64,000 nt of DNA from an uncultured Muribaculaceae bacterium (GTDB taxonomy: Bacteria > Pseudomonadota > Alphaproteobacteria > Rs-D84). Under the pieces are notes generated by a model that was not told where the DNA came from, did no database searches, and saw nothing but the letters and a program-made list of their open reading frames with translations. Positions 5,127 through 58,898 of the stretch are shown here, one piece after another (the first letter of the stretch is position 1; each line of letters opens with the position of its first letter). The DNA is taken from the NCBI GenBank assembly GCA_964619545.1, contig CAZUED010000001.1, positions 49,898-113,897 on the forward strand, read 5' to 3'. A program made the translations under genes and the position numbers.

Positions 5127-5420
5127 ATGATTAAACAAAGTGAAAAAGAAATTATAGCAAAATCTATTAAGGCATATAATTGCACAGTTCCACTGGTAAT
5201 TGAGGAGATGTCCGAACTTACCAAGGAACTGATAAAGCATTTTTATCGTGGCCGTCCGCGGCGCGATGAAATTATAGAAGAAATTTGCGATGTTTATATT
5301 ACTTTGGAAGAGTTGAAAATTTTTATGGAAATTTCTGACAATGAAGTAAAAAAGCAAATCGAAAAAAAGATTGATCGTCAAATTAAAAGATTGGCAGAAT
5401 GTGAAAAGCCAAAAAAATGA
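5127..5420 (+). CDS. MazG-like nucleotide pyrophosphohydrolase domain protein (97 aa)
   Basis: EEMSELTKEL ... EEICDVYITLEEL pattern typical of the small all-alpha MazG/NTP-PPase fold. Confidence 0.4.
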   Translation: MIKQSEKEIIAKSIKAYNCTVPLVIEEMSELTKELIKHFYRGRPRRDEIIEEICDVYITLEELKIFMEISDNEVKKQIEKKIDRQIKRLAECEKPKK

Positions 5421-5428
5421 TATGAAAA

Positions 5429-6097
5429 ATGTTCGCAAAGAATTGGTTTTTTGATTTAGAACGGCACTTGGTAAATTCTGGCTTGGATTCTGATTCAGAA
5501 ACTTTTGATGTGCTGAAGAAAAGATTGTCCCAACCTGTTTGTTTATCTGCTGATGATTTTGCACGTCAGGCAATTTATGTAATTTTGTCCGGCGGTTTCT
5601 CACAAAAAACAGCAAAAAAAGTACATGCGCAAATAATGGATTATTTGATTAAAAATAATAGTCCAAAATTTGATGATTTATTTGCAATTTTTCATAATAA
5701 AAACAAGATAAATGCAATTATAAAAATATGGGAAAACCGTCAAAAACACCGGGATTTTTACTATGATTTAGATTTTTTGGACAGCAAATTAGATTATTTA
5801 TCATCATTGCCACATATTGGAAAAATCACAGCAAATCATCTGGCAAGGAATCTGGGCGAAGACATTGTTAAATATGACATTTGGATCCAAAGGATCGCGG
5901 TGCGATTCAGAGAGCAAAGTGCAAACAGCAAAGAGCAATTATCAGATAAAATTAATAACCAGAAGCTAAATCCAGAAATAAAAAAAGCATGTGATGATAT
6001 GTTTGCGCACTTGGTAAATGAAACTGGTTTGCAACGTGGTTATATTGATGTTGTGTTGTGGAAGGCGGCGCAAAATCATTTGATTGATGGAATATAA
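5429..6097 (+). CDS. HhH-GPD superfamily DNA glycosylase (MagIII/3-methyladenine glycosylase-like)
   Basis: Helix-hairpin-helix LPHIGKITANHLARNLG followed by DIWIQRIAVRF (GPD-region equivalent); ~220 aa. Confidence 0.4.
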   Translation: MFAKNWFFDLERHLVNSGLDSDSETFDVLKKRLSQPVCLSADDFARQAIYVILSGGFSQKTAKKVHAQIMDYLIKNNSPKFDDLFAIFHNKNKINAIIKIWENRQKHRDFYYDLDFLDSKLDYLSSLPHIGKITANHLARNLGEDIVKYDIWIQRIAVRFREQSANSKEQLSDKINNQKLNPEIKKACDDMFAHLVNETGLQRGYIDVVLWKAAQNHLIDGI

Positions 6098-6098
6098 A

Positions 6099-6761
6099 AT
6101 GAATGTAAAAATAGAAGAATCTTGGAAGACTGCATTGGCTGATGAATTTGATAAAGATTATTTTATCAAACTGACAGATTTTGTGCGCAGAGAATATATG
6201 TCTGGCAAAAAAATCTATCCGGCTCCAACAGACATTTTTAATGCCTTTAATCTGTGTCCTGTTGACAAGGTTAGTGTGGTAATTATCGGACAAGATCCGT
6301 ATCACGAGCCAGGTCAGGCCCATGGTTTATGTTTTTCCGTTCAGAATGGGACGCAATTGCCGCCATCTTTACAAAACATTTATAAAGAAATACAAAATGA
6401 TCTGTTGCGACCCAGCGTGACGCATGGCGATTTAACCAGTTGGGCGCAGCAAGGAGTTTTGTTGTTAAATTCTACTTTGTCGGTCCAGGCGCATTTGGCC
6501 GCATCGCATGCAGGTAAGGGGTGGGAGCGTTTTACAGATGCAGTTATTCGTGCGATTTCGCATCGTAGTGGTCTGGTTTATATGCTGTGGGGCAGTTATG
6601 CTCAGAAAAAGGCAGAGTTGGTAAACGGGGCAGAAAATCTGGTATTAAAAAGCGTTCATCCATCACCATTGTCTGCACACCGTGGATTTTTTGGCAATCA
6701 TCATTTTTCGCGTGCGAATGAGTATTTGATAGCGCAGGGTAAAAAACCGATAAATTGGTAG
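6099..6761 (+). CDS. ung: Uracil-DNA glycosylase
   Basis: VVIIGQDPYHEPGQAHGLCFSV and HPSPLSAHRGFFG motifs. The alternative start at 6084 overlaps the upstream gene. Confidence 0.9.
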   Translation: MNVKIEESWKTALADEFDKDYFIKLTDFVRREYMSGKKIYPAPTDIFNAFNLCPVDKVSVVIIGQDPYHEPGQAHGLCFSVQNGTQLPPSLQNIYKEIQNDLLRPSVTHGDLTSWAQQGVLLLNSTLSVQAHLAASHAGKGWERFTDAVIRAISHRSGLVYMLWGSYAQKKAELVNGAENLVLKSVHPSPLSAHRGFFGNHHFSRANEYLIAQGKKPINW

Positions 6762-31444: not shown

Positions 31445-32881
31445 TTGCACAGCAATATGCGCGGAAATTTTTTGCTGCAAGCTTTGCTGGCAATCGCCTT
31501 GGTGATGTCATTTATGTCTTTTATGGCGCCAAAATTAGCCGCGCGAAAAAGTGATGCCACCATGGCTGCAATTGCACGCCAGACAGAAACTGCTGCCCGC
31601 GCAGCTCGGCAATTTGTCCGTGCCAACAAGTCAAGCATTGTTTATGGTCCACGCACCATTTCAGGTGATGGATTTTCCGATTTGCTAGAACCTTTTGGTC
31701 TGCCATTGGGTTTTATTCCATTAACCACAGCACAACAAAAAATTTCGCTTTTGACATCAAAAAATGATTCTGGTGTTATTGCCTTGATAGTTTTGCAGGG
31801 TGGTAAAATTTCAGATGTAAAGCGTCATGAATTAATGTCTCGAATCGGGCCCGAGGCTGCAATTGCGGATGATGATGGATTGTTACATGGAATTGGGGGA
31901 TGGGAAAAATCCCTTAAAGATTTTGGTATAAAACCAGATACATCAGCCGTTTATATGCTGGTTCCTGCAGATGATGATTTTTCAGAATTGATCAGACGTA
32001 ATGCTAATGATTTATCAAGAAATAAATTTCATATTGACCTTTCTATGGCAGGTATGTCTATAAAAAACATCACATCACTTTCTGCAAGGAATGCAGAACT
32101 GGGCACCGCAAACTTTGGAACTTTATCCATAACTGGTTCCAGCGACGAGAGAAAGTTTAAGAACAAGATAGATTTAGTATCCGCCACGCGCGCAGTATTT
32201 CAGACACGCGATGGTGCAAATGCTTTGAACATTTCCAGGGGTGATTTAAATGCAAAATCATTATCCGCGCAAACTCTTTTCAGATATGGAATTCCAGGCT
32301 CGGTTGATGCTGGGTCAACTTCAATCAATTCATTATCAATGGCTGTCGGTCGATCAGGATTTATAGGAATGTATGATTGGGATGTTCACAGCGATGTAAT
32401 TTTAAATAATGTTTCTATAGATACTGAACATCTTGAAATAAATGGATTTGTGAATGCTTCGCGTGGTCAGGATGTATTTATTGATAAAGATGAATTAACA
32501 TATTCAACAAAAAGTGGGGTCGAGACAAGAAAACTTACTACCGCATCAATAACTTTACGGGACCAGGTTTCCAGCGCATTGCTTTCTGGATCTGATGGCT
32601 CTGTAATTCTTGACATTCGTCCAGCAGGTGTTTCTGTTTTAACAGATGTTTTATCCGACAGCATAAATAACGACGCATTTGAGATACTTAAAAACCCAAC
32701 CGCCGATGATGGTGCATTAATTGGTTGCAGAAATGTAATTTCTGCTTTGCCATCGGCACCTGCATACAATTCCAAATCCGCTGCGCAAAACATAGTATGC
32801 CAATTTGTTTTCTGGCAACGTCTTGAGCGTCGTATAAACATAAAGCAGTGTATGCTAGACGGGGGCAGCAATTGCGGATGA
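31445..32881 (+). CDS. Large prepilin-like protein A (478 aa): short leader MHSNMRG, then a hydrophobic NFLLQALLAIALVMSFMSFMAP segment
   Basis: TTG start with a strong SD AGGAGGG 7 nt upstream. Has a class-III signal-like N-terminus and a beta-rich remainder; paralogous to the next two genes. Confidence 0.5.
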   Translation: MHSNMRGNFLLQALLAIALVMSFMSFMAPKLAARKSDATMAAIARQTETAARAARQFVRANKSSIVYGPRTISGDGFSDLLEPFGLPLGFIPLTTAQQKISLLTSKNDSGVIALIVLQGGKISDVKRHELMSRIGPEAAIADDDGLLHGIGGWEKSLKDFGIKPDTSAVYMLVPADDDFSELIRRNANDLSRNKFHIDLSMAGMSIKNITSLSARNAELGTANFGTLSITGSSDERKFKNKIDLVSATRAVFQTRDGANALNISRGDLNAKSLSAQTLFRYGIPGSVDAGSTSINSLSMAVGRSGFIGMYDWDVHSDVILNNVSIDTEHLEINGFVNASRGQDVFIDKDELTYSTKSGVETRKLTTASITLRDQVSSALLSGSDGSVILDIRPAGVSVLTDVLSDSINNDAFEILKNPTADDGALIGCRNVISALPSAPAYNSKSAAQNIVCQFVFWQRLERRINIKQCMLDGGSNCG

Positions 32882-34176
32882 TGAATAAATTAAAGTTTTT
32901 TTATAATAAATATATTATGGGTGAAAAAAATTCATCCCATGTAATTCATTATTCATTAACTTGTCAGCGGGGTGCTGGATTGTTAGAAACTTTGCTGGCA
33001 ATCGCAGTTGTTGGTGCAGTTCTACCCTTTGCTTATACCAGTGCTATAGATATGAGTCACAGTATTGCAGATACTGCCGAGGCTAATCGGGTTCTGGCAT
33101 GGCATGATCCTGTGATGGCATATGTTCGTAAGAATCAGTCAGATTGGCCGCAAACGGCACAAATAGAATTTGACGAAGAGGAAGTTGTTATTATGGGGAC
33201 TGGAGACAACAGATTATTGTATCCATATGCCGGGTTTATTGAAAAGCGTCAGGGTTCCGGCGGTTCGGTTATAAATGCATATTTAGCATTTCGCCCAGTT
33301 GGTATAAATGAAATCCGCGTTGCAAACATTGCAAAAAATCTGGGTTCTGATGCTGCTGTTGCCAGCAATGGTGGGAATGCATCCAGCTCTGCTGGATGGA
33401 GCATTTATTCCGAGCTATTTACAGATGGTGATTTGATTTTTAGAATTTCTGACATTTTGGGTGATGATGATGCATACAAGTATTTGCACAGAACTTATTT
33501 GGACGATCCAGAATTAAACACAATGCGTCGTGATTTGGATATGGCAAAAAATAGCATTTTTGACATTGGGAAAATAACAGCGCAAACATTGAATGCTACA
33601 AACTCGAAACTTTGGTTTATTGAAACTCCACATATTCAGACGTCCGAAATTTATTTTCCCGAAGGATCGTCAATTGATGCGTCTAAAGCTGTCTTTGGTT
33701 CGGTTAATGTGAACGGAGACGTTAATGGACTGCGAAAAATTACGGCTGGAAAATTAAAAGGCGCTGCCGTACTTGCTGGTTCGCAGTGGTCTTCACGTGG
33801 CGATGTTGTAGTAGATTCAGTAAATGTAAATGGGCCTGTTAATGTTCAGCGAGACATGGTGGTGCGCGCAGAAAGTGCGCGCAGTATAAGTGGTTTCGCC
33901 GGTGTGCGTGCAAATTCCGTTGCAACGCCATATATTTTTGCAGATCAGATGTTTTTTGCCAGTGGTTATGGGATAACAATTTCAAGTGAGTTGTTATATT
34001 CTTCTACTGGTGTACCAATAAAATTAGGAAATTGGAGCTTTCCATCAACAAGCAGTCCAAAGTTTTCCACGCTGACATTGTATAAATCCAATGGAAAGGA
34101 ATTAGGCCAAGTATTGGGTGTTCCAAATACCAAAGATGTTGCGTCGATAATGAGAAGTGGATGGAAAAATCTGTGA
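32878..34176 (+). CDS. Large prepilin-like protein B (433 aa): 32-aa leader MMNKLKFFYNKYIMGEK...CQRG, then AGLLETLLAIAVVGAVLPF
   Basis: ATGA overlap with gene A. Has RG followed by x4-E and a ~20-aa hydrophobic stretch; the C-terminal GSVNVNGDVNG...VNVNGPVNV repeats suggest a beta-helix. Confidence 0.5.
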   Translation: MMNKLKFFYNKYIMGEKNSSHVIHYSLTCQRGAGLLETLLAIAVVGAVLPFAYTSAIDMSHSIADTAEANRVLAWHDPVMAYVRKNQSDWPQTAQIEFDEEEVVIMGTGDNRLLYPYAGFIEKRQGSGGSVINAYLAFRPVGINEIRVANIAKNLGSDAAVASNGGNASSSAGWSIYSELFTDGDLIFRISDILGDDDAYKYLHRTYLDDPELNTMRRDLDMAKNSIFDIGKITAQTLNATNSKLWFIETPHIQTSEIYFPEGSSIDASKAVFGSVNVNGDVNGLRKITAGKLKGAAVLAGSQWSSRGDVVVDSVNVNGPVNVQRDMVVRAESARSISGFAGVRANSVATPYIFADQMFFASGYGITISSELLYSSTGVPIKLGNWSFPSTSSPKFSTLTLYKSNGKELGQVLGVPNTKDVASIMRSGWKNL

Positions 34177-35537
34177 ATCATAAATTAAGGAATTTTTATA
34201 ATAAATATATTATTGGTGAGAAAATTTCACCAGATGTAACACACCATTCACGTGGCGGGATGATGTTGGAAATACTTTTGTCTTTGGCTATTGCTGCGGC
34301 CGCATTGCCTTTTGTTCTGCGGCAATTAGATAATCGTACGCACCGCGCTGAAAATGTAAGCATAGCGCGCGACATTGCTATGACTCGTGATGCTTTAGAA
34401 CGTTATATGGATGCGCGGAAACGCGAATTATTGGCGCCAACCGGATCATTCGTTACGCGTGTTAAAATGCGCGATCTGATTGAATACGGAAACATTCCAA
34501 AAAATTATGACAAGTTCCAAGCCCGTATAATAAAATCCAGGGATGCAAACGGCCATGCTGTTTTATCAGGTATGGTTATATTTGACTCTGCGGATATATC
34601 ACCAGTGCGAACACGGGAAATTGCAGAACTTGGTGGACAGGGTGCTGGATTTGTAGAACGAAACGAAGCATACAGCGCATTCGGAACATGGCGTAGTAAG
34701 ACAAGTATTTTTGATGCGCAATTTGGCAAGGATTCGGTAGTAGAAAGCACAGACACAATTTTGTCTGGTGGTGACTTTCTTTGGAGATTGCCTTCGAATG
34801 AGCCACTAGACGGATCAATGGCCAGCGATTTTTCTATGGGTGGTAATAATATAAATGACGCAAAGCAAATAGATGCGTATAGCGCAGATTTTAGTGAGAT
34901 TTTGCATGCGGATTTAATTTCCGCCAGAAAAGTTCAGATTACACCTCGTGCAAATTTTGAATCGGCATTAGTTGTATCGGGCGAAGCCCTGGTAATGGGC
35001 GCAATGACATCTGATTCAAGAAATGCGACAATAGGCTCGGAAGTTTTTTTAACTGGCCAGGCGCGTATATCCAGACTGGACACAGGCGAGCTTTGGGTCG
35101 GCGATCTGAATCTGAATGGGCTTTCTATTGGTGGAAGCGAGAAACCTGGAATTTTGAAAGTTGGTCAGACCATAGACATTACTCGCGGCCGTATAACGGC
35201 GCGTACGGCAACTATTGGATATAGCGGTTCAGTTGCACCAAAAATTTCAGTGACCGAACGTATAGAAGATTCAGGCAATCAAGCATATTATTGGGACTTG
35301 AAATCTGGGGATGCCAAGTTTTTTGATGTTTCTGCAGGGCAGCTTAATCAAATGATGAAAAATGCAATTCGCGCCGAATCAAAAAGTCCAAAAACAACTA
35401 CAGAAACAATAATTAATCAAGTTGCCGCAAATAATAATGCGACCATTTCAGATTACGCACGTGCATTGGGCGAAATACAAAGCAAGGTTATGATGAAATA
35501 TAACCGCTTGAAATTAGAGCAAGCCGGTGTAAAATAA
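34161..35537 (+). CDS. Large prepilin-like protein C (458 aa): leader MEKSVNHKLRNFYNKYIIGEK...HSRG, then GMMLEILLSLAIAAAALPF
   Basis: Overlaps the gene B stop. The leader motif KL+xFYNKYI(I/M)GEK is shared with gene B. An alternative GTG start at 34173 gives MNHKLRNFYNKY. Confidence 0.5.
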   Translation: MEKSVNHKLRNFYNKYIIGEKISPDVTHHSRGGMMLEILLSLAIAAAALPFVLRQLDNRTHRAENVSIARDIAMTRDALERYMDARKRELLAPTGSFVTRVKMRDLIEYGNIPKNYDKFQARIIKSRDANGHAVLSGMVIFDSADISPVRTREIAELGGQGAGFVERNEAYSAFGTWRSKTSIFDAQFGKDSVVESTDTILSGGDFLWRLPSNEPLDGSMASDFSMGGNNINDAKQIDAYSADFSEILHADLISARKVQITPRANFESALVVSGEALVMGAMTSDSRNATIGSEVFLTGQARISRLDTGELWVGDLNLNGLSIGGSEKPGILKVGQTIDITRGRITARTATIGYSGSVAPKISVTERIEDSGNQAYYWDLKSGDAKFFDVSAGQLNQMMKNAIRAESKSPKTTTETIINQVAANNNATISDYARALGEIQSKVMMKYNRLKLEQAGVK

Positions 35538-44842: not shown

Positions 44843-46204
44843 TTATTCCTCTAAATACTCGCGCAGTTTATCACCAGAAATTTTTGGTGTTCTTGTTGCT
44901 TCGCCGGGCTCTACTATTGAAACAACTCGTGGGCTCATAAACACAACCAACTCTGCAAATGGATTTATCAATGTTTCGGGTTCGGTCACAAAGCTGTGTG
45001 TTGGAATTCCAATTATCACATAGTTATCACCCAGGCTGGATGGAACATTAAAGTTTGCCAATTCCCCATCGCTGGTGCGAAGTGTTATTTTAGCATCAAG
45101 TTTTACCATGTCTGCATACTGACCATACTTTCCAGTCGCGCCAACAATCAAGTCCGTTTCCAATCTGTCCTCGCGGGAACACTGACCAATGTCAAATCTG
45201 CTTTGCCAGCCATTTGGTATTACAAATGTTCCTTGGGAAATTAAAACTACATTAGCTTGTTGTGATAAGAATGATTGTAATGTTTTTGTGTTTATCTCTG
45301 GGGACACCACCAGTAATCTGCCAACTACGCCAGGTATCGACATTTTTACATTGTCATCACCGAATGCTGGCAACATATTCATCCATACTATCGGATTATC
45401 AGTGCGTGGATATACGCGATATACATCCATGTCCCATGCAACTAGGAATTTTTTGTTGCCGACATCTGCAACAATTGCGCGAACTTCGCGTTCGGTTTGA
45501 TAATTTCCCTCGAATACCAGGGTTTTATCCTGCCAGTTAGTAAGCAGATTTCGCAATTCAGCACCACGCATTGCATCGATCAACGCCATTATCATATGCT
45601 GGTCTTTTGGCATTTTCATCAGCCATTTTCCGCGTGATGAAATCCGAATTTCCTTGGCATCGTCATCATAAGAGTAATAAACTTTTCCCAATTTGCAGAT
45701 AAGCTCTACAGCGTCTTCCAATGTTCCGGATTTAATTTCTCCGCTAATCAGATCTGGCATATTGTCGGATACAACTACTTTTATCTTGGTTCCTTTTAAA
45801 AGGTTTTCTAAAACATCTGGGACATTCTTTTTCTTGAATGCAAAATCTTCGACGTCAAAATCAGGCAGATTATCGCCCTTGTTCAATCGCACGATTTCAA
45901 CAGGTTGTGCCGGGATAACAGACATTATATTTTGGTTATCCCAATCAACTTTACATCTTTTTGGAAGGTCTATGGCAAAACGCCGTGCGGTATCAGTTGT
46001 CAATCCAGCTTTGCGTGGAAATATAGGAACTGAGTATTCATCTACAATTGTGTTTTCAACAACCTCTATCGTATCGTATTGGACCTGATTTTGCTGACGC
46101 ATTTGTGTGCATCCAGCAAGTACAAGGCACAGAATACATGTCACAGGTAATATTTTTATATATTTTATATTCATTGTTGGTTCCTTGTTTCTATGCTTTG
46201 CCAT
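44843..46204 (-). CDS. Secretin-like outer-membrane lipoprotein (Secretin_N-like plus C-terminal secretin motif), co-operonic with lolCD
   Basis: Lipobox LVLAGC; N-domain-like NVPDVLENLLKGTKIKVVVSDNMPDLISGEIKSGTLEDAVELICKLGKVYY; C-terminal ETLINPFAELVVFMSPRVV resembles the secretin ELVIFVTPRIV signature. The likely true start is MNIKYIKIL at 46174. Confidence 0.5.
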   Translation of the reverse strand: MAKHRNKEPTMNIKYIKILPVTCILCLVLAGCTQMRQQNQVQYDTIEVVENTIVDEYSVPIFPRKAGLTTDTARRFAIDLPKRCKVDWDNQNIMSVIPAQPVEIVRLNKGDNLPDFDVEDFAFKKKNVPDVLENLLKGTKIKVVVSDNMPDLISGEIKSGTLEDAVELICKLGKVYYSYDDDAKEIRISSRGKWLMKMPKDQHMIMALIDAMRGAELRNLLTNWQDKTLVFEGNYQTEREVRAIVADVGNKKFLVAWDMDVYRVYPRTDNPIVWMNMLPAFGDDNVKMSIPGVVGRLLVVSPEINTKTLQSFLSQQANVVLISQGTFVIPNGWQSRFDIGQCSREDRLETDLIVGATGKYGQYADMVKLDAKITLRTSDGELANFNVPSSLGDNYVIIGIPTHSFVTEPETLINPFAELVVFMSPRVVSIVEPGEATRTPKISGDKLREYLEE

Positions 46205-49710: not shown

Positions 49711-52449
49711 ATGAGAATAAAAAAAGCAATAATCGTTGGTTTGATGCTGCCTTTAGTATCTGAAATTTGCGCGATACCGGCGGGTGCTGTCAGCTATGTG
49801 AATACGCCGACCGCGCGCCCCAGCACTACGGCGCGTATGCCGACATTGTTGACAGGTTCAGTTGCCAGTACGGCTTATTCTACTGCGACTAATGCTGGAT
49901 TGGCTGCGACGTGTGCAAATCCATTACCGGAAAGGCTGACCTCTAACAGATGCATTGACAGATACGATTCGTGCCTGCGCCAAGAAAATGTCTGCGGCGA
50001 ACATTTTGAGCTGTGCTATAACTTAAAACAATTTAACAAGTCCCGCATAATGTGTCAGGATTATTTGGCACAATGTCCCGCCGAAGCAATCAAAGCCATC
50101 TTTGGAAATTCTGTTACAACATCGGATGATTTTTCCGCGGCGAACCGGGCGATGTGTGATGGCGAATCCGTTTTGATAAAAAGATCTTTTTCTCCATCAC
50201 TTGGTGACATTGCGGTCGCCGGTGATAGCAGAATAGACATCGCTATAAAAGAGGGTAGAAACTGGGCTGCTGCAAATAGCGTTAAAACTTGTAACAAAGC
50301 TGCTGATGTTTGTATTCAGAATGCTTGCCAAGGTTCTCCACAGAAATGTATTTCTTTGAATGGATTTTCAGATATAGACACGGCCGAGATGGTTAATATA
50401 GCAACAGCTGGCGAAACCACTTTGCGCTTGAATGCAAAAATGTTGGAAACTTGGATTTTCAATATGGGCTGGGATGACAGCAATGTAAAAAATTATCTGA
50501 AAGAGCAATGCCGTGAAACTATTGGTGCAAACGAATGGTGCTTTATGGTGACAAATGGCAAGCCAGCCAAGGAAGCAGACCTGGTTGATAATTTTAACAT
50601 CCAGGAAGTTTTCACAGACATTATGTATAATGGTGTTGGTGCCCGTTGGAAAATGTCACAATCCAAGATAAAAGAATGGGCGGCAGCTGCAACCAAAAAT
50701 TCTGTAGCGCAATGCCAGGCTGCATTGACCGATTGTGCAATTAATGCATGCGGTGAAGGATCGCGCGCACGGTGCTATGGATTGGCAAAAGATGGCAATT
50801 CGGTCAGTATAAAGAATAAAGCAGGTTCTGACATCGAAGGCCAATGCAAGAATTTGATAGAAAACAATCAATACTGCAAGGATGTTTTCCGTAACAAAGA
50901 AAATGGTTTGGATGGGGATGTCTGGACCCAGGTTTGGACAAATGATGTTATGGGGACCATAGTTGGTCTGGATTCCGATTTGCAAAAAATGTTTAACGAA
51001 GAGGCTGTGGCAGAAATGCGCCGTAGCTGTCAGGCTCAGGCTGAAAAATGTGTTATGGACGAATGCGGAAGCGATTTCTCGCGCTGCTTTATAACCAGCA
51101 GTGATGCTAAAAAGGCAGGCCAGGTTGCTTTTGCATCTGGCAAGGTAACCAGCAGTTTGTTTGCCGGCGGATTTGATGAAGCCTTGGCTCGTGACCTGTG
51201 CATACTGAAAGTAAAACAAGTCACAGATTGTAATGACTATTTTGATGTTCAATATGCAAAACAATCAAGTGGCAAAAGTGCTGATGCGTGGGCCACATCC
51301 AGCACGGCTCGTAATGCTTGGCTGGGCGCTGCGAACAGCACGACAGAAGACAATGTATGCCGAGTGACCGAAACCTATCTGGATAAATATGATGTTTCGG
51401 GCAATGCGATTGACCCAACGGTTAAGTTGGCGTCCAAGGTAAAGGTTTGCGCAGCCCAAGAACGCGGTATATTTGATGGATTGTTAGGCGATATAAACAA
51501 GCGCGCGAATTCGGTTCTAGAACGCGAAGCAAATGACATTAAAAACGCTTGTGAAAACAGCAATGTCAAGGGCTCGACCGCAAAAGATTATATCTGGGCG
51601 GCATTTGACGGGTTGGGCGGATCTGACGAATATAGTGGATTCAGTGAAGTTCGCGAAACAAGTAATCCGTTTGATGGATTCTGTGCAGTTCGTGTAACAA
51701 TTCGTTCTAATAATTCCAAAGTTGTCAGCGCACTTGGTGGTAATAAAACTATGTATTATGCAAAAGGCACAACTATGCCTTGCCTGGGCTTGACCGCGGA
51801 CGAGCTGGAAAAAGTCGAGCGCGCAGTTGCATCTGATGTAAGGTTCTGTGGTTCTGATGAAACAAATGCAACTCATGGCTGTGTAGAGAGAATGACAGGA
51901 TTGCAAAAAACCCTGAGTATAGGTGGCGCGACCTTGGGGGGCCTAGTTGTTGGTGGCTTGGGCGGGGTCATGGCTGGTAATGCGATACAGAATAAAATAA
52001 CCAGCTCGGGCAACAATCTCAGCGAGGCTGAACGGACTATATTAAACAATTGCAATTCTTGTTTGTCATCCCAAGGTGTTGGATTCAGCAGCAAAAACGC
52101 ATGCAGTTCTGCCAGTATGGGTGACAACGATGATGGCAAAAGCAATGTTGTTGCAAAAAATCTTTGCCAAGCAAAGGCGAACGAGCTGAATGCCAAGGCG
52201 AAAAAACAAACAAACAATCTGATGAACTTTGCCAGCACTGGCGGAATTACTGGGGCAAGTGTTGGTGCTGGATTGTTAGGTTTGACCGGCGGACTTTTGG
52301 CTGGTAATGCGATTGATCAAAATGAAAAGGATAAATTAGCAGAAGCCCGTCAGGCAGCCATAGATGATTTTAACGCTAAGACAGATATAAATTGTTATAT
52401 CGGCGGTAAAAAAGTTGCCGCGTATGGTTCAGATATGGTTATAAAATAA
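49711..52449 (+). CDS. Giant secreted cysteine-rich repeat protein (912 aa, 39 Cys) with two C-terminal glycine-zipper segments
   Basis: Signal peptide; three tandem super-repeats each carrying C-x6-C-x4-C-x6/7-C followed by C-x9/10-C; C-terminal LSIGGATLGGLVVGGLGGVMAGNAI and GGITGASVGAGLLGLTGGLLAGNAI. Confidence 0.55.
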   Translation: MRIKKAIIVGLMLPLVSEICAIPAGAVSYVNTPTARPSTTARMPTLLTGSVASTAYSTATNAGLAATCANPLPERLTSNRCIDRYDSCLRQENVCGEHFELCYNLKQFNKSRIMCQDYLAQCPAEAIKAIFGNSVTTSDDFSAANRAMCDGESVLIKRSFSPSLGDIAVAGDSRIDIAIKEGRNWAAANSVKTCNKAADVCIQNACQGSPQKCISLNGFSDIDTAEMVNIATAGETTLRLNAKMLETWIFNMGWDDSNVKNYLKEQCRETIGANEWCFMVTNGKPAKEADLVDNFNIQEVFTDIMYNGVGARWKMSQSKIKEWAAAATKNSVAQCQAALTDCAINACGEGSRARCYGLAKDGNSVSIKNKAGSDIEGQCKNLIENNQYCKDVFRNKENGLDGDVWTQVWTNDVMGTIVGLDSDLQKMFNEEAVAEMRRSCQAQAEKCVMDECGSDFSRCFITSSDAKKAGQVAFASGKVTSSLFAGGFDEALARDLCILKVKQVTDCNDYFDVQYAKQSSGKSADAWATSSTARNAWLGAANSTTEDNVCRVTETYLDKYDVSGNAIDPTVKLASKVKVCAAQERGIFDGLLGDINKRANSVLEREANDIKNACENSNVKGSTAKDYIWAAFDGLGGSDEYSGFSEVRETSNPFDGFCAVRVTIRSNNSKVVSALGGNKTMYYAKGTTMPCLGLTADELEKVERAVASDVRFCGSDETNATHGCVERMTGLQKTLSIGGATLGGLVVGGLGGVMAGNAIQNKITSSGNNLSEAERTILNNCNSCLSSQGVGFSSKNACSSASMGDNDDGKSNVVAKNLCQAKANELNAKAKKQTNNLMNFASTGGITGASVGAGLLGLTGGLLAGNAIDQNEKDKLAEARQAAIDDFNAKTDINCYIGGKKVAAYGSDMVIK

Positions 52450-55578: not shown

Positions 55579-57258
55579 ATGCCAGTTCGCATATTGCCAG
55601 ATTTTTTAATAAACCAAATCGCCGCAGGCGAGGTGGTTGAACGTCCCGCCAGTGTGGTGAAAGAGTTGGTCGAAAATTCTTTGGATTCCGGGGCCGATCA
55701 GGTTGTGATAGACGTAATAGATGGTGGCCGAACATTGATTTCTGTTATAGATAATGGCAAGGGTATGAGCCCGGAAGATTTGGCAAACAGTATAAAGCGA
55801 CATGCCACCAGCAAACTTCCATCTGATGATTTATTGAATATAAACTTTATGGGATTTCGTGGCGAGGCATTGCCATCTATTGCCAGTGTCAGTGATATGA
55901 CAATTGACTCTGTTGGGCTGAATTTGGATTGTACAACTTTTGAAATAAAGCCTTCTGCATGGGAATCTGGCACGCGTGTTCGTGCCCAGAATTTATTTGC
56001 AAAAACGCCCGCCCGGCTGAAATTTCTACGGGGCGATCGCGCGGAAATGATGTCCGTGGTCGAGGTTGTAAAAAGACTGGTCATGGCACGATCCGATGTT
56101 GGATTTACCCTGAATAACAAATGGCGGTTCCCGAAAAATCAGCCACTGATTGATCGTATTGTTGCAGTCATGGGCGATGATTGCATAAATCACATGATTA
56201 AAATTGAAAATGAAAATAACGGATTGCGGTTATCTGGTTTTGTGTCTGTGCCAACTTTGCGCCGTGCTTCATCTATCGATCAGTATTTATTTGTTAATGG
56301 TCGTCCGGTCAAGGACAAGGTTTTAATCGGCGCACTGCGCGCGGCATACATGGATGTTATGCATGCGCGCGAATTTCCGCTTTGTGCGCTGTATTTGGAA
56401 TTACCTGCGGACCAGGTTGATGTTAATGTATCGCCCGCCAAGACCGAGGTGCATTTTTTAGAACCAGCCCGAATTCGTGGCTTTATAATAAAAACAATTC
56501 GTAATGCGCTGGCCCAGCCAATGGCCGGCTTTGTCTCCAAAGGTGAAATACCAAAACCAAATCTAAATTTAAATCAACAGAATATATTTAATAATAGTAA
56601 TGATTTTTTTCTTGTGCGCGAGCAGGTAAAAAATGTTATCCAGCAAAACAGGAATACCGACAACTTTGCTGATTCTGCAAATCAATCTGTACCTTTTCCG
56701 CTGGGTCGGGTCATTGGTCAGATTGGAAATAAATACATTTTGGCAGAAAGCCAGCAAGGTCTGGTCATAGTTGATCAGCATGCTGCCCATGAAAGAATTA
56801 CCTATGAGCGTCTGCGAGGACATGAAATTAAAGTGCAAAAGTTATTGGTTCCAATGGTAATAACATTAAAGCCGGAAGAGGTCTGGGCAATTTTAGAAAT
56901 CGCGGACGAGCTGGCTGAATGTGGTCTGCAACTGGTACAATTCGGTGAAAACTCTGTTGCAATAAGTGAAAAGCCAGCGGACTGGGATTTGGATTGGACA
57001 GCGCTTTTACGCGATGTGGCGGTGGAGGTTTTGGAAAACGGACATTCATCCCAGTTAAGTGAAAAATTGCATTTAAAACTGGCAAACTATGCCTGTCATC
57101 ATTCGGTTCGGGCAGGTCAGTGTTTAACGACCCAGGCCATGGATGCGCTGCTGCGCGACATTGAAAAAACCGAGCGTGGTGGCGAATGCAATCATGGTCG
57201 TCCAGTTTATAAAATAATCCCAGTTTCCCAGTTGGATGGTTGGTTCGAGCGAAGCTAG
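55579..57258 (+). CDS. mutL: DNA mismatch repair protein MutL
   Basis: ILPDFLINQIAAGEVVERPASVVKELVENSLDSGA GHKL N-terminus; C-terminal dimerisation domain. Confidence 0.93.
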   Translation: MPVRILPDFLINQIAAGEVVERPASVVKELVENSLDSGADQVVIDVIDGGRTLISVIDNGKGMSPEDLANSIKRHATSKLPSDDLLNINFMGFRGEALPSIASVSDMTIDSVGLNLDCTTFEIKPSAWESGTRVRAQNLFAKTPARLKFLRGDRAEMMSVVEVVKRLVMARSDVGFTLNNKWRFPKNQPLIDRIVAVMGDDCINHMIKIENENNGLRLSGFVSVPTLRRASSIDQYLFVNGRPVKDKVLIGALRAAYMDVMHAREFPLCALYLELPADQVDVNVSPAKTEVHFLEPARIRGFIIKTIRNALAQPMAGFVSKGEIPKPNLNLNQQNIFNNSNDFFLVREQVKNVIQQNRNTDNFADSANQSVPFPLGRVIGQIGNKYILAESQQGLVIVDQHAAHERITYERLRGHEIKVQKLLVPMVITLKPEEVWAILEIADELAECGLQLVQFGENSVAISEKPADWDLDWTALLRDVAVEVLENGHSSQLSEKLHLKLANYACHHSVRAGQCLTTQAMDALLRDIEKTERGGECNHGRPVYKIIPVSQLDGWFERS

Positions 57259-57446
57259 AATACAAATTGTTCAACACAATAAATTAATTTCACTTGATTT
57301 TTTATAATTATTGAATTTCTTGTTTGCCCGAATCGCAATTATTTGCTATGAATCCTTTTAAAAGGAAGGAGACGGATTGATACAAAGTCCGCAAAGTTGC
57401 AAAAATATGCACGAACGCAGGCACTTTTGTGTGTGCAGGTTTTTGT

Positions 57447-58508
57447 ATGCGGATGATTATTTGTAGTTTTCTGTTTCTGATTTTTATTTCGTTACCGGCA
57501 TATTCGGCCATGACAACCAAAACATATATGGAGCGCAAAACCAATGTTGCAGGCGCGGGTATGGCCACAGCCGGTCAGATAGCAAAGTATGTTGCAGATG
57601 GTGCGACCGGCGAAATGAAACTGGTTGGTGCGGCTGCCTCGGATATTTCTGGTGTACTTGGCGCAATGAGTGTCAGAGACATTTTAACTGGTACCGACAC
57701 AGAAAACAAATTGGCAAGTGCACAAACAATAAACGCTGCAATGGGTGGATACGCAACGACAGCTGGAACAAGTACCGCCTATACTGCAACTATTCCGGGG
57801 TTCGTATTGCAAGATGGCGCAAAAGTAAGATTAAAAATACACACTACTAATAGTGCTTCTGCGACATTGAATGTAAGTGGGACAGGTGCGAAAAATATGA
57901 CATTGTATACGGGTGTAAATATACCATATGCTTATTTTTATAGCAATATGGTAGCGGACTTTGTATATGATAATACTAGCGGCAAGTGGATGATTGTGAG
58001 CGCAGTAATTCAAGGGGCTTCTGATGGTATTCGACAAGGGAATGCTGTTAATTTTTATAGATATAGTGGTTCTGGTTTAAAATCTGCGATTCTTAATTAT
58101 GGTGGCGCGGCGATTACGACTGCCGGGACAGCTGCAGCTTATACAATAACAGATACAACAAATTATACCAGTACAGCCGCCTATCTGGATGCGGGGACCA
58201 AGGTTGTTGTAAAGATGCATTTGGCGAATGCCGCAAGCGCAACCCTGAATCTGAATGCGCTTGGCGCAAAGGCTATCTTTTTCAATGGCGCCGCCATTGC
58301 TGCTGGAATGCTGCAATTAAATGGGACATACACTTTTGTTTATGATGGAACAAACTGGAATGTTGTTCAGGCCCCAGGTGTAATTCCGCTTACTCCGGCC
58401 GAGTGTCTGGATACGGCCAATAGATGCTTGCTGGCCTATGGCGACACCGATTTGGTTACTGCCGGAATCCAGGGGCCAGGTTATATTTGGGAAGTAGTGG
58501 ACAGATAA
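57447..58508 (+). CDS. Secreted protein with two ~110-aa tandem repeats
   Basis: Signal peptide MRMIICSFLFLIFISLPAYSA; internal repeats TAGTSTAYTATIPG...SASATLNVSGTGAKNM...FVYDNTSGKWMIVSAV and TAGTAAAYTITDTT...AASATLNLNALGAKAI...FVYDGTNWNVVQAP. Confidence 0.5.
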   Translation: MRMIICSFLFLIFISLPAYSAMTTKTYMERKTNVAGAGMATAGQIAKYVADGATGEMKLVGAAASDISGVLGAMSVRDILTGTDTENKLASAQTINAAMGGYATTAGTSTAYTATIPGFVLQDGAKVRLKIHTTNSASATLNVSGTGAKNMTLYTGVNIPYAYFYSNMVADFVYDNTSGKWMIVSAVIQGASDGIRQGNAVNFYRYSGSGLKSAILNYGGAAITTAGTAAAYTITDTTNYTSTAAYLDAGTKVVVKMHLANAASATLNLNALGAKAIFFNGAAIAAGMLQLNGTYTFVYDGTNWNVVQAPGVIPLTPAECLDTANRCLLAYGDTDLVTAGIQGPGYIWEVVDR

Positions 58509-58595
58509 AAATTTTGGTTTGCCAAATACTTAAAAAAACACTGGCGTCGCCAGTGTTTTTTTACTATCTTTCGACAAGTAAAAAGGAGAAAATAC

Positions 58596-58898
58596 ATGAA
58601 TACTGATGTTGCAAATACAATTATGCCCGCTGCGGCAGCGCCAAAAAATGATGTTTGGGGTTTGGTTATTTATTGCGCGATAATTTTCGCGATAATTTAT
58701 TTCTTTATGATTATGCCAAACAAGCGCAGAATGAAAGAATACCAGAAGATGTTGGATGGATTAAAAGTCGGAAATCGCGTATTGGCCGCCGGAATTTATG
58801 GGACTATTAAAAAAATAGGCGAAAAAACGATTGATTTGGAAATTGCAAAAGGTGTTGTTATCGAGGTTTCTAAAAACTCTATTGCAAACGTAGAATAA
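58596..58898 (+). CDS. yajC: Preprotein translocase subunit YajC
   Basis: Single TM helix, then PNKRRMKEYQKMLDGLKVGNRVLAAGIYGTI. Confidence 0.85.
   Translation: MNTDVANTIMPAAAAPKNDVWGLVIYCAIIFAIIYFFMIMPNKRRMKEYQKMLDGLKVGNRVLAAGIYGTIKKIGEKTIDLEIAKGVVIEVSKNSIANVE

Follow-up and report, generated by a model that had tools for sequence, protein, structure and literature searches.

A probable family of stand-alone exported fibre proteins built from phage tail-fibre beads in uncultured gut Alphaproteobacteria

Introduction

Very few systems are known in which bacteria re-use the receptor-binding hardware of phages as surface fibres of their own, and the clearest is that of the mosaic adhesive trimer (MAT) fibres of Bdellovibrio bacteriovorus. 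The shafts of these fibres are beta-helical, and in 13 of the 21 MATs the fibre terminates in an S74 domain; an invariant N-domain, proposed to attach the fibre to the cell, follows directly after the signal peptide, and the C-terminal tip is variable (PMC10769870). On the phage side, residues 1-340 of gp47, the tail fibre of Pseudomonas phage Pa193 (Pbunavirus; PDB 9B45; PHROG 4900), form three trimeric 'beads-on-a-string', with three four-stranded sheets to each bead (PMC11456595). Here we describe a gene that lies between mutL and yajC in a 64,000-nucleotide stretch of DNA (contig CAZUED010000001.1, positions 49,898 to 113,897; hereafter the window, always meaning the whole stretch). Its product would be a host-encoded secreted protein made from phage-fibre modules.

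The window protein resembles Pa193 gp47 in having homologues of shaft beads II and III. Whereas gp47, the product of a gene in a phage tail module, has 962 residues, no signal peptide, a baseplate-binding bead at its start and a long distal fibre further on, the window protein has 353 residues and two beads only, together with a predicted Sec signal, an N-terminal module of its own and a cysteine cap, and is encoded by a lone chromosomal gene. Neither a baseplate-attachment bead nor the long distal fibre of such proteins (~960 aa in full length) was found in it.

With the MATs it shares membership of a chromosomal multi-paralogue family, a signal peptide, a phage-fibre-like build, an invariant module after the signal peptide combined with a variable module, and a proposed role in surface recognition. 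The likeness, above all that of a signal peptide plus invariant N-terminal module on many chromosomal paralogs, is one of analogy: no homology to MAT domains was detected (the best solved MAT tip, 8on4, gave a Foldseek E of 3), and neither Peptidase_S74 nor any other Pfam domain was matched in the window protein or its relatives. This comparison covers tip 8on4 and Pfam; the MAT N-terminal domain (~130 aa, beta-rich) has no solved structure. The two families also differ in where they vary, the C-terminal tip in MATs and an internal bead here, where nothing is more strongly conserved than the C-terminal cap, and in their hosts, which here is an uncultured alphaproteobacterium and not Bdellovibrio. 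A third point of comparison is provided by trimeric autotransporter adhesins and other type V proteins with extended signal peptides, with which family members share a long basic N-terminal extension and, probably, a fibrous and trimeric form. Unlike those adhesins, neither the window protein nor the relatives scanned show a YadA-type or other beta-barrel anchor (Pfam and NCBIfam), passenger repeats or an ESPR motif (Pfam).

In our judgement the gene probably belongs to a small, uncurated family of chromosomal, stand-alone exported fibres, and encodes two phage-fibre beads behind a start that has been severed. If true, this would extend the re-use of phage fibres to uncultured Alphaproteobacteria of the gut and termite gut, about whose surface biology next to nothing is known, and the family offers a compact two-bead model in which constant and variable parts are clearly separated.

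Results

Two beads of the phage tail-fibre type

The initial annotation, made from the sequence alone, had described a secreted protein of two tandem repeats of ~110 residues with a composition reminiscent of phage tail fibres. Both repeat strings that it quoted are found in the translation (residues 105-187 and 225-310), and the two halves of the protein are 41% identical over 66 aa (E 7e-11, single BLASTP comparison). From a 35-sequence alignment AlphaFold2 predicts a pair of equivalent beta domains, one at about residues 100-190 and the other at about 220-310, both with pLDDT above 90. The repeat is real; its dimensions had to be revised, to a conserved core of ~85-90 aa recurring with a period of ~120 aa.

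The tail-fibre resemblance was borne out at the level of the domain by PHROG, PDB-profile, Foldseek and BFVD matches. PHROG 4900 ('tail protein') matches residues 68-189 (E 6e-11), the match being restricted to profile positions ~212-353, and the second repeat matches phrog_27282. The family profile finds one solved structure, residues 215-335 of the gp47 fibre (9b45; E 5e-8), and Foldseek reaches the same chain at E 3e-5. Among the predicted viral structures of BFVD there are 79 matches at E<=1e-3, most of the named top ones being tail fibres or tail proteins. Only profile and fold comparisons reveal the similarity to phages.

Curated resources gave little: searches of the protein and its relatives with Pfam, NCBIfam and PADLOC returned nothing usable, the sole Pfam line being StcE_b-sandwich at E 8.9. 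An exhaustive profile search, on the other hand, recovered 9111 representative proteins at E<=1e-3, many of them with 5-28 matched stretches. The family thus draws attention to a very common and uncurated tail-fibre module (>9000 representative proteins) that has neither a Pfam nor an NCBIfam model.

Some giant proteins of 1700-2500 aa (for example P0042, P0054 and P0108) carry 13-28 matches to parts of the family profile, which suggests that elsewhere very long fibres are assembled from units such as the bead and an 'ILTGTDTxNKLxSAQ' hinge motif. No Pfam or NCBIfam model for the bead or for this hinge was found in any protein scanned.

Bead domains are typical of tail fibres, and the protein could accordingly serve as a structural fibre in a particle of phage origin, such as a prophage remnant, a tailocin or a gene transfer agent (GTA), that is encoded at another place in the genome. 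Alphaproteobacterial GTAs do have fibre genes away from their main cluster. We nevertheless consider this extremely unlikely. A predicted cleavable signal peptide is conserved across the family, whereas proteins of particles assembled in the cytoplasm carry none; the match is limited to shaft beads and includes no baseplate-attachment domain; and the six loci examined are all free of nearby phage genes. Phage remnants around the gene, for which the initial annotation had advised a search, are likewise lacking: its neighbours and the rest of the window are housekeeping genes, and its GC content (0.42-0.45) matches that of the flanks, indicating native composition. Neither the window locus nor the other family loci belong to a phage or prophage tail gene module; all have housekeeping surroundings.

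A conserved head and cap define the family

The predicted signal peptide has stood up to family alignment. The segment MRMIICSFLFLIFISLPAYS, followed by A, consists of a basic n-region, a hydrophobic core and a small-x-small cleavage motif. By inspection, and from the alignment, the n-region, h-region and signal peptidase I site of a Sec-secreted protein can all be recognized, and in nine sequences the cleavage motif occupies a single alignment column across the family (AYS-A, ANA-A, AHA-A and ADA-A, of the AxA or AxS type). Two invariant cysteines fall in the mature part of the protein. A lipoprotein signal was considered and rejected, as the Cys residues precede the hydrophobic core and there is no lipobox.

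About 12 representatives share the full architecture, with lengths from 353 to 2175 aa. Of the best 149 bead-domain proteins with an initial Met, ~10 show a hydrophobic signal segment at the N-terminus and 12 end in the cap motif C..C.L.YG...[FY]xWEx[IV]xR; of the ten with a signal, seven belong to the 12 cap-motif carriers. From this co-occurrence the family can be defined: a conserved head, made up of the signal peptide and xTSKxYVxxK/R after it, is followed by beads in variable number and by a conserved Cys cap.

Within species-representative genomes, the close relatives come from three metagenome-assembled genomes (MAGs). Two are labelled 'Muribaculaceae', namely CAYJAG01 (loci L005, L006 and L008) and CAZHPG01 (L004 and L007), and the third is a termite-gut 'Rickettsiales' MAG (L009). 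CAYJAG01 holds at least four copies (L005, two at L006, and L008). L008 is the positional ortholog of the window gene, with the same mutL, yajC and secDF flanks; the other copies adjoin ftsH/tilS/xerC-like genes, priA/miaA/gap or uvrA/rodZ. At L006 two copies stand in tandem 3' of gap, at 5277-6434 and from ~6516 to the contig end. The second of these, like P0006, carries an insertion of ~170 aa (..GYTALEYIQSSGTQYIDTG..) just before the terminal WExVxR strand, and the P0006 tip insertion has no Pfam, PDB or specific PHROG match. A family scan of JGI metagenomes yielded 4 loci only, and an exact-pattern scan of the same resource for the conserved 20-mer spanning the Shine-Dalgarno (SD) sequence and start gave 0 matches.

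The hosts of the family are uncultured gut or insect-gut Alphaproteobacteria. The RecA protein of the window shares 88-93% identity with proteins that carry the label 'MAG: Alphaproteobacteria bacterium' or 'Rickettsiales bacterium', which identifies the host of the window as an uncultured alphaproteobacterium. Because L008 is syntenic with this alphaproteobacterial window and ~85-90% identical to it in conserved segments, the 'uncultured Muribaculaceae' label of CAYJAG01 and CAZHPG01 is doubtful; labelling or binning looks wrong.

Constant ends and an exchanged middle

Comparison of the window gene with L008 reveals purifying selection. Omega is 0.073 at dS 0.69 for the N-terminal module (over 57498-57722, residues 18-92) and 0.093 at dS ~0.69 for bead 2 plus cap. 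Bead 2 alone has dN 0.098 and dS 0.73, and the cap is the most constrained part of the protein, with 43 of 43 residues identical (dN 0, dS 0.58) and ~40% synonymous differences.

Bead 1 behaves differently. Its identity to L008 is 51%, with dN 0.48 and dS 1.44, versus dS ~0.6-0.7 in the flanks, and nucleotide identity drops to 33-62% across 57798-58140. This bead is moreover closer to paralogs at other loci (62-65%) than to the positional ortholog. The combination of raised dS, raised dN and discordant similarity points to replacement of the cassette by recombination among paralogs rather than to simple drift, so that bead 1 and the linker are probably a fast-diverging cassette exchanged by recombination. 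Constant ends and a variable middle fit an exposed recognition or adhesion protein.

The upstream mini-ORF is a severed gene start

Public gene calls place the start of the gene at ATG 57447 and give a product of 353 aa (P0001), and three independent Logan assemblies carry a protein identical to P0001. The open reading frame (ORF) listing of the window extends the + strand frame to a GTG start (57429..58508, 359 aa). A 29-codon ORF with a strong SD, proposed earlier as a regulatory leader peptide, does exist just upstream; it starts at a TTG, encodes MIQSPQSCKNMHERRHFCVCRFLYADDYL and overlaps the main start.

The SD and TTG are shared with L008 (identical over >20 nt), where the frame that they open continues directly into the protein (MILGPQSCKNLNKCKHFCACAGFCVQMGICGFFFLIFISLPAYSA, then MTTKTY), and this extended product has been called independently as P0064. 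The upstream ORF is 60% identical over 25 aa to the in-frame N-terminus of L008 (MILGPQSCKNLNKCKHFCACAGFC...). In the alignment it is matched to residues 1-20 of the ortholog's extension, and the window main frame (CAGFCMRMIICSF) aligns with the ortholog's continuation (CAGFCVQMGICGF). When 2 nt are added in silico at the frameshift site, the upstream and main ORFs fuse into one.

The relatives agree with this picture. Five paralogs (L025/P0002, L026/P0003, the two L006 copies and L007) have an in-frame, basic extension of 22-33 residues, with the motif GGAAGG(A/G)G preceding their starts as it does in the ortholog; the Rickettsiales-MAG copy (L009/P0008) has a comparable in-frame extension without this SD. 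In ortholog and paralogs the extension precedes the hydrophobic signal core, and the position of the upstream ORF corresponds to the N-terminal extensions of P0002 and P0003. The frameshifted allele is identical in L001-L003, making four assemblies in all with the window, and is therefore not a single-assembly error.

Sequence comparison thus identifies the mini-ORF as the original 5' end of the gene, put out of frame by a 2-nt deletion at the (TG)4 tract. Like coupled upstream ORFs and leader peptides, it is a short ORF with a strong SD that overlaps the main start, and a stable hairpin spans both. Unlike them, it is not conserved as a separate unit: in every relative examined it is the in-frame N-terminus of the protein (L008 and its separate Logan assembly L028, L025, L026, both L006 copies and L007). 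The leader-peptide idea, for which lack of conservation in related genomes had been named as the decisive counter-evidence, consequently fails, and the case is a caution for annotation, since an apparent strong-SD upstream ORF was revealed as a frameshifted gene start only by comparison with the ortholog.

A weaker form of that idea, which applies to the present allele, is that the severed segment now acts as a translational-coupling leader, in which translation of the 29 codons melts the hairpin, ribosomes terminate 20 nt past ATG 57447 and the main ORF is then initiated. The region 57355-57480 has a minimum free energy (MFE) of -44.3 kcal/mol (z -5.6), with 0 of 200 shuffles as stable, and the hairpin holds ATG 57447 in its 3' arm; the strong SD and the overlap of the upstream stop with the main start would also suit coupling. 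As many as 35 of the 42 pairs can form in L008, with one compensatory change, although pair retention between two sequences that are 78% identical is weak evidence. In the paralogs z ranges from +1.0 to -2.4 and no hairpin of this kind is seen, Rfam has no match to it at gathering thresholds, and the arrangement exists in this allele only, the ORF being continuous with the protein in the ortholog and the five paralogs. We regard a coupling leader as quite unlikely.

Whether the deletion arose by template switching at a quasi-palindrome was also considered. This origin was rejected: once TG is restored the hairpin gains stability, and so it cannot owe its existence to the deletion. A programmed +1 frameshift on the T5 run was considered as well.

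The indel, of exactly 2 nt, sits where TGTGTGTG ends, and one added TG restores the frame, as would be expected if the tract were a slipped-strand phase-variation switch that toggles a full-length form with an extended signal peptide. Such a switch would suit a surface fibre with a variable cassette, and the paralog at L006 is also TG-rich at this position. Four repeat units are, however, short for efficient slippage, the tract has the same length in all four assemblies, the ortholog has no repeat tract there (TGTGCATGCGCTGG), and the second lesion known at this locus, that of L008, is not in a repeat. Phase variation is in our view very unlikely.

That second lesion is a 1-nt deletion in mid-gene (~540-550, equivalent to window ~57724), which splits L008 into ORFs of 118 aa and 240 aa and recurs in L028. 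It bears on the foremost rival to our interpretation, namely that the mutL-yajC copy is a decaying pseudogene that has lost its efficient start and makes little or no protein, its intact 353-codon frame reflecting a recent lesion. In the window allele the strong SD/TTG start is no longer in frame with the gene body, the only other allele at the locus is split, and redundant paralogs exist in related genomes. Against decay, omega stays at 0.07-0.09 to both sides of the lesion in L008, and in the cap a dS of ~0.6 goes with a dN of 0; no further stop or indel occurs in 1059 nt; GCAGG is kept at 7-nt spacing from ATG 57447, with a complete signal core after it; and the same allele is present in four assemblies. 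On balance we think a pseudogene unlikely.

We retain as the more probable reading that of a gene that still encodes an exported fibre. Its expression would now rely on the internal ATG 57447 with its weak GCAGG SD, from which the ORF keeps the complete signal-peptide core, and ribosomes that terminate at the overlapping upstream stop may aid initiation there.

Proposed function

The most likely function, judging from architecture and homology, is that of a trimeric surface fibre or adhesin. The protein would be exported via Sec and its signal peptide cleaved after AYS, and the mature protein would then trimerize into a short homotrimeric two-bead fibre. Homotrimer assembly is probable by analogy with the Pa193 gp47 beads, the model made here being of a monomer. 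The conserved N-terminal module may anchor the fibre on the cell, the role suggested for the invariant N-domain of MATs, and the disulfide-stabilized C-terminal cap may serve as a folding or partner-binding element. Bead 1, or the tip insertions in some paralogs, would give variable specificity.

Several points weigh against this interpretation. No outer-membrane route was identified, there being neither a beta-barrel domain in the protein nor adjacent secretion genes. The first 100 residues and the last 45 are poorly modelled by AlphaFold2, and pLDDT is below 50 for the N-terminal module and the C-terminal cap. A tblastn search against 50,697 GenBank phage records returned nothing at E<=1e-3. 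Finally, both known mutL-yajC alleles are frame-disrupted, at different sites, and the locus may be decaying.

A bolder proposal, which we put forward tentatively and hold to be doubtful as it stands, is that the genes form an undescribed family of domesticated tail-fibre proteins serving as variable surface fibres. A fixed anchor and Cys cap would be retained and beads or tip insertions swapped among scattered and tandem paralogs, and frameshifts in the extended signal-peptide region would silence individual copies or lower their output. Such a family could be the alphaproteobacterial counterpart of the MATs for recognizing cells or host surfaces.

Features and genomic context

The coordinates of the features are collected in Table 1. 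The gene is flanked by mutL (55579..57258) and yajC (58596..58898), the latter followed by secD and secF, and lptF/G and greA are also among its neighbours. The terminator-like hairpin of its own indicates that it is a separate transcription unit. The remainder of the window is housekeeping in nature (gyrB, aspS, uvrB, mltA, mnmE, recA, typA, serS, ftsA and others). No second family copy was found inside the window by tblastn, and Rfam at gathering thresholds reported two tRNAs only for the whole window.

Table 1. Positions of the gene, its protein segments and its neighbouring elements in the window
Feature	Position	Strand	Remarks
Shine-Dalgarno of ancestral start, GGAAGGAGA	57364..57372	+	5 nt upstream of TTG 57377
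Long imperfect mRNA hairpin	57368..57478	+	Covers SD, upstream ORF and ATG 57447
Upstream ORF, the frameshifted 5' gene end (former n-region extension)	57377..57466	+	Closes at TAG 57464-57466, 20 nt inside main ORF
Frameshift site, (TG)4 tract (TGTGTGTG) then CAGG	57428..57439	+	2-nt gap versus ortholog at 57437/57438 (MAFFT)
Main ORF, present form	57447..58508	+	353 aa plus stop; weak SD-like GCAGG 7 nt 5' of ATG
Signal-peptide core	57447..57509	+	Residues 1-20 or 1-21; predicted signal peptidase I cleavage AYS-A; inspection and conserved column
Conserved N-terminal module	57510..57746	+	Residues 22-100, TTKTYMERKT..MATAGQIAKYVADGATGEMKL..ILTGTDTENKLASAQ; 88% identical to ortholog; low pLDDT
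Bead domain 1, hypervariable cassette	57747..58031	+	Residues 101-195; pLDDT above 90; matches Pa193 gp47 residues 215-335
Inter-bead linker, divergent too	58032..58112	+	Residues 196-222
Bead domain 2	58113..58376	+	Residues 223-310; pLDDT ~90; phrog_27282 E 1e-5; 84% identical to ortholog
C-terminal cap	58377..58505	+	Residues 311-353; invariant Cys C320 and C327; ends WEVVDR; family signature
Intrinsic-terminator-like hairpin with T run	58531..58563	+	Also kept in ortholog L008

Other ORFs of the window stand out for their lack of annotation. Three consecutive + strand ORFs of 478, 442 and 458 aa (31445-35537) have no Pfam match at E<=1e-5. A 912-aa ORF between ftsA and a DnaJ-domain gene (49711-52449) has no Pfam match, and is also without annotation in the precomputed table for L001. 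A further ORF of 453 aa (44843-46204), again without a Pfam match, lies directly upstream (- strand) of a gene for a MacB/FtsX-type permease.

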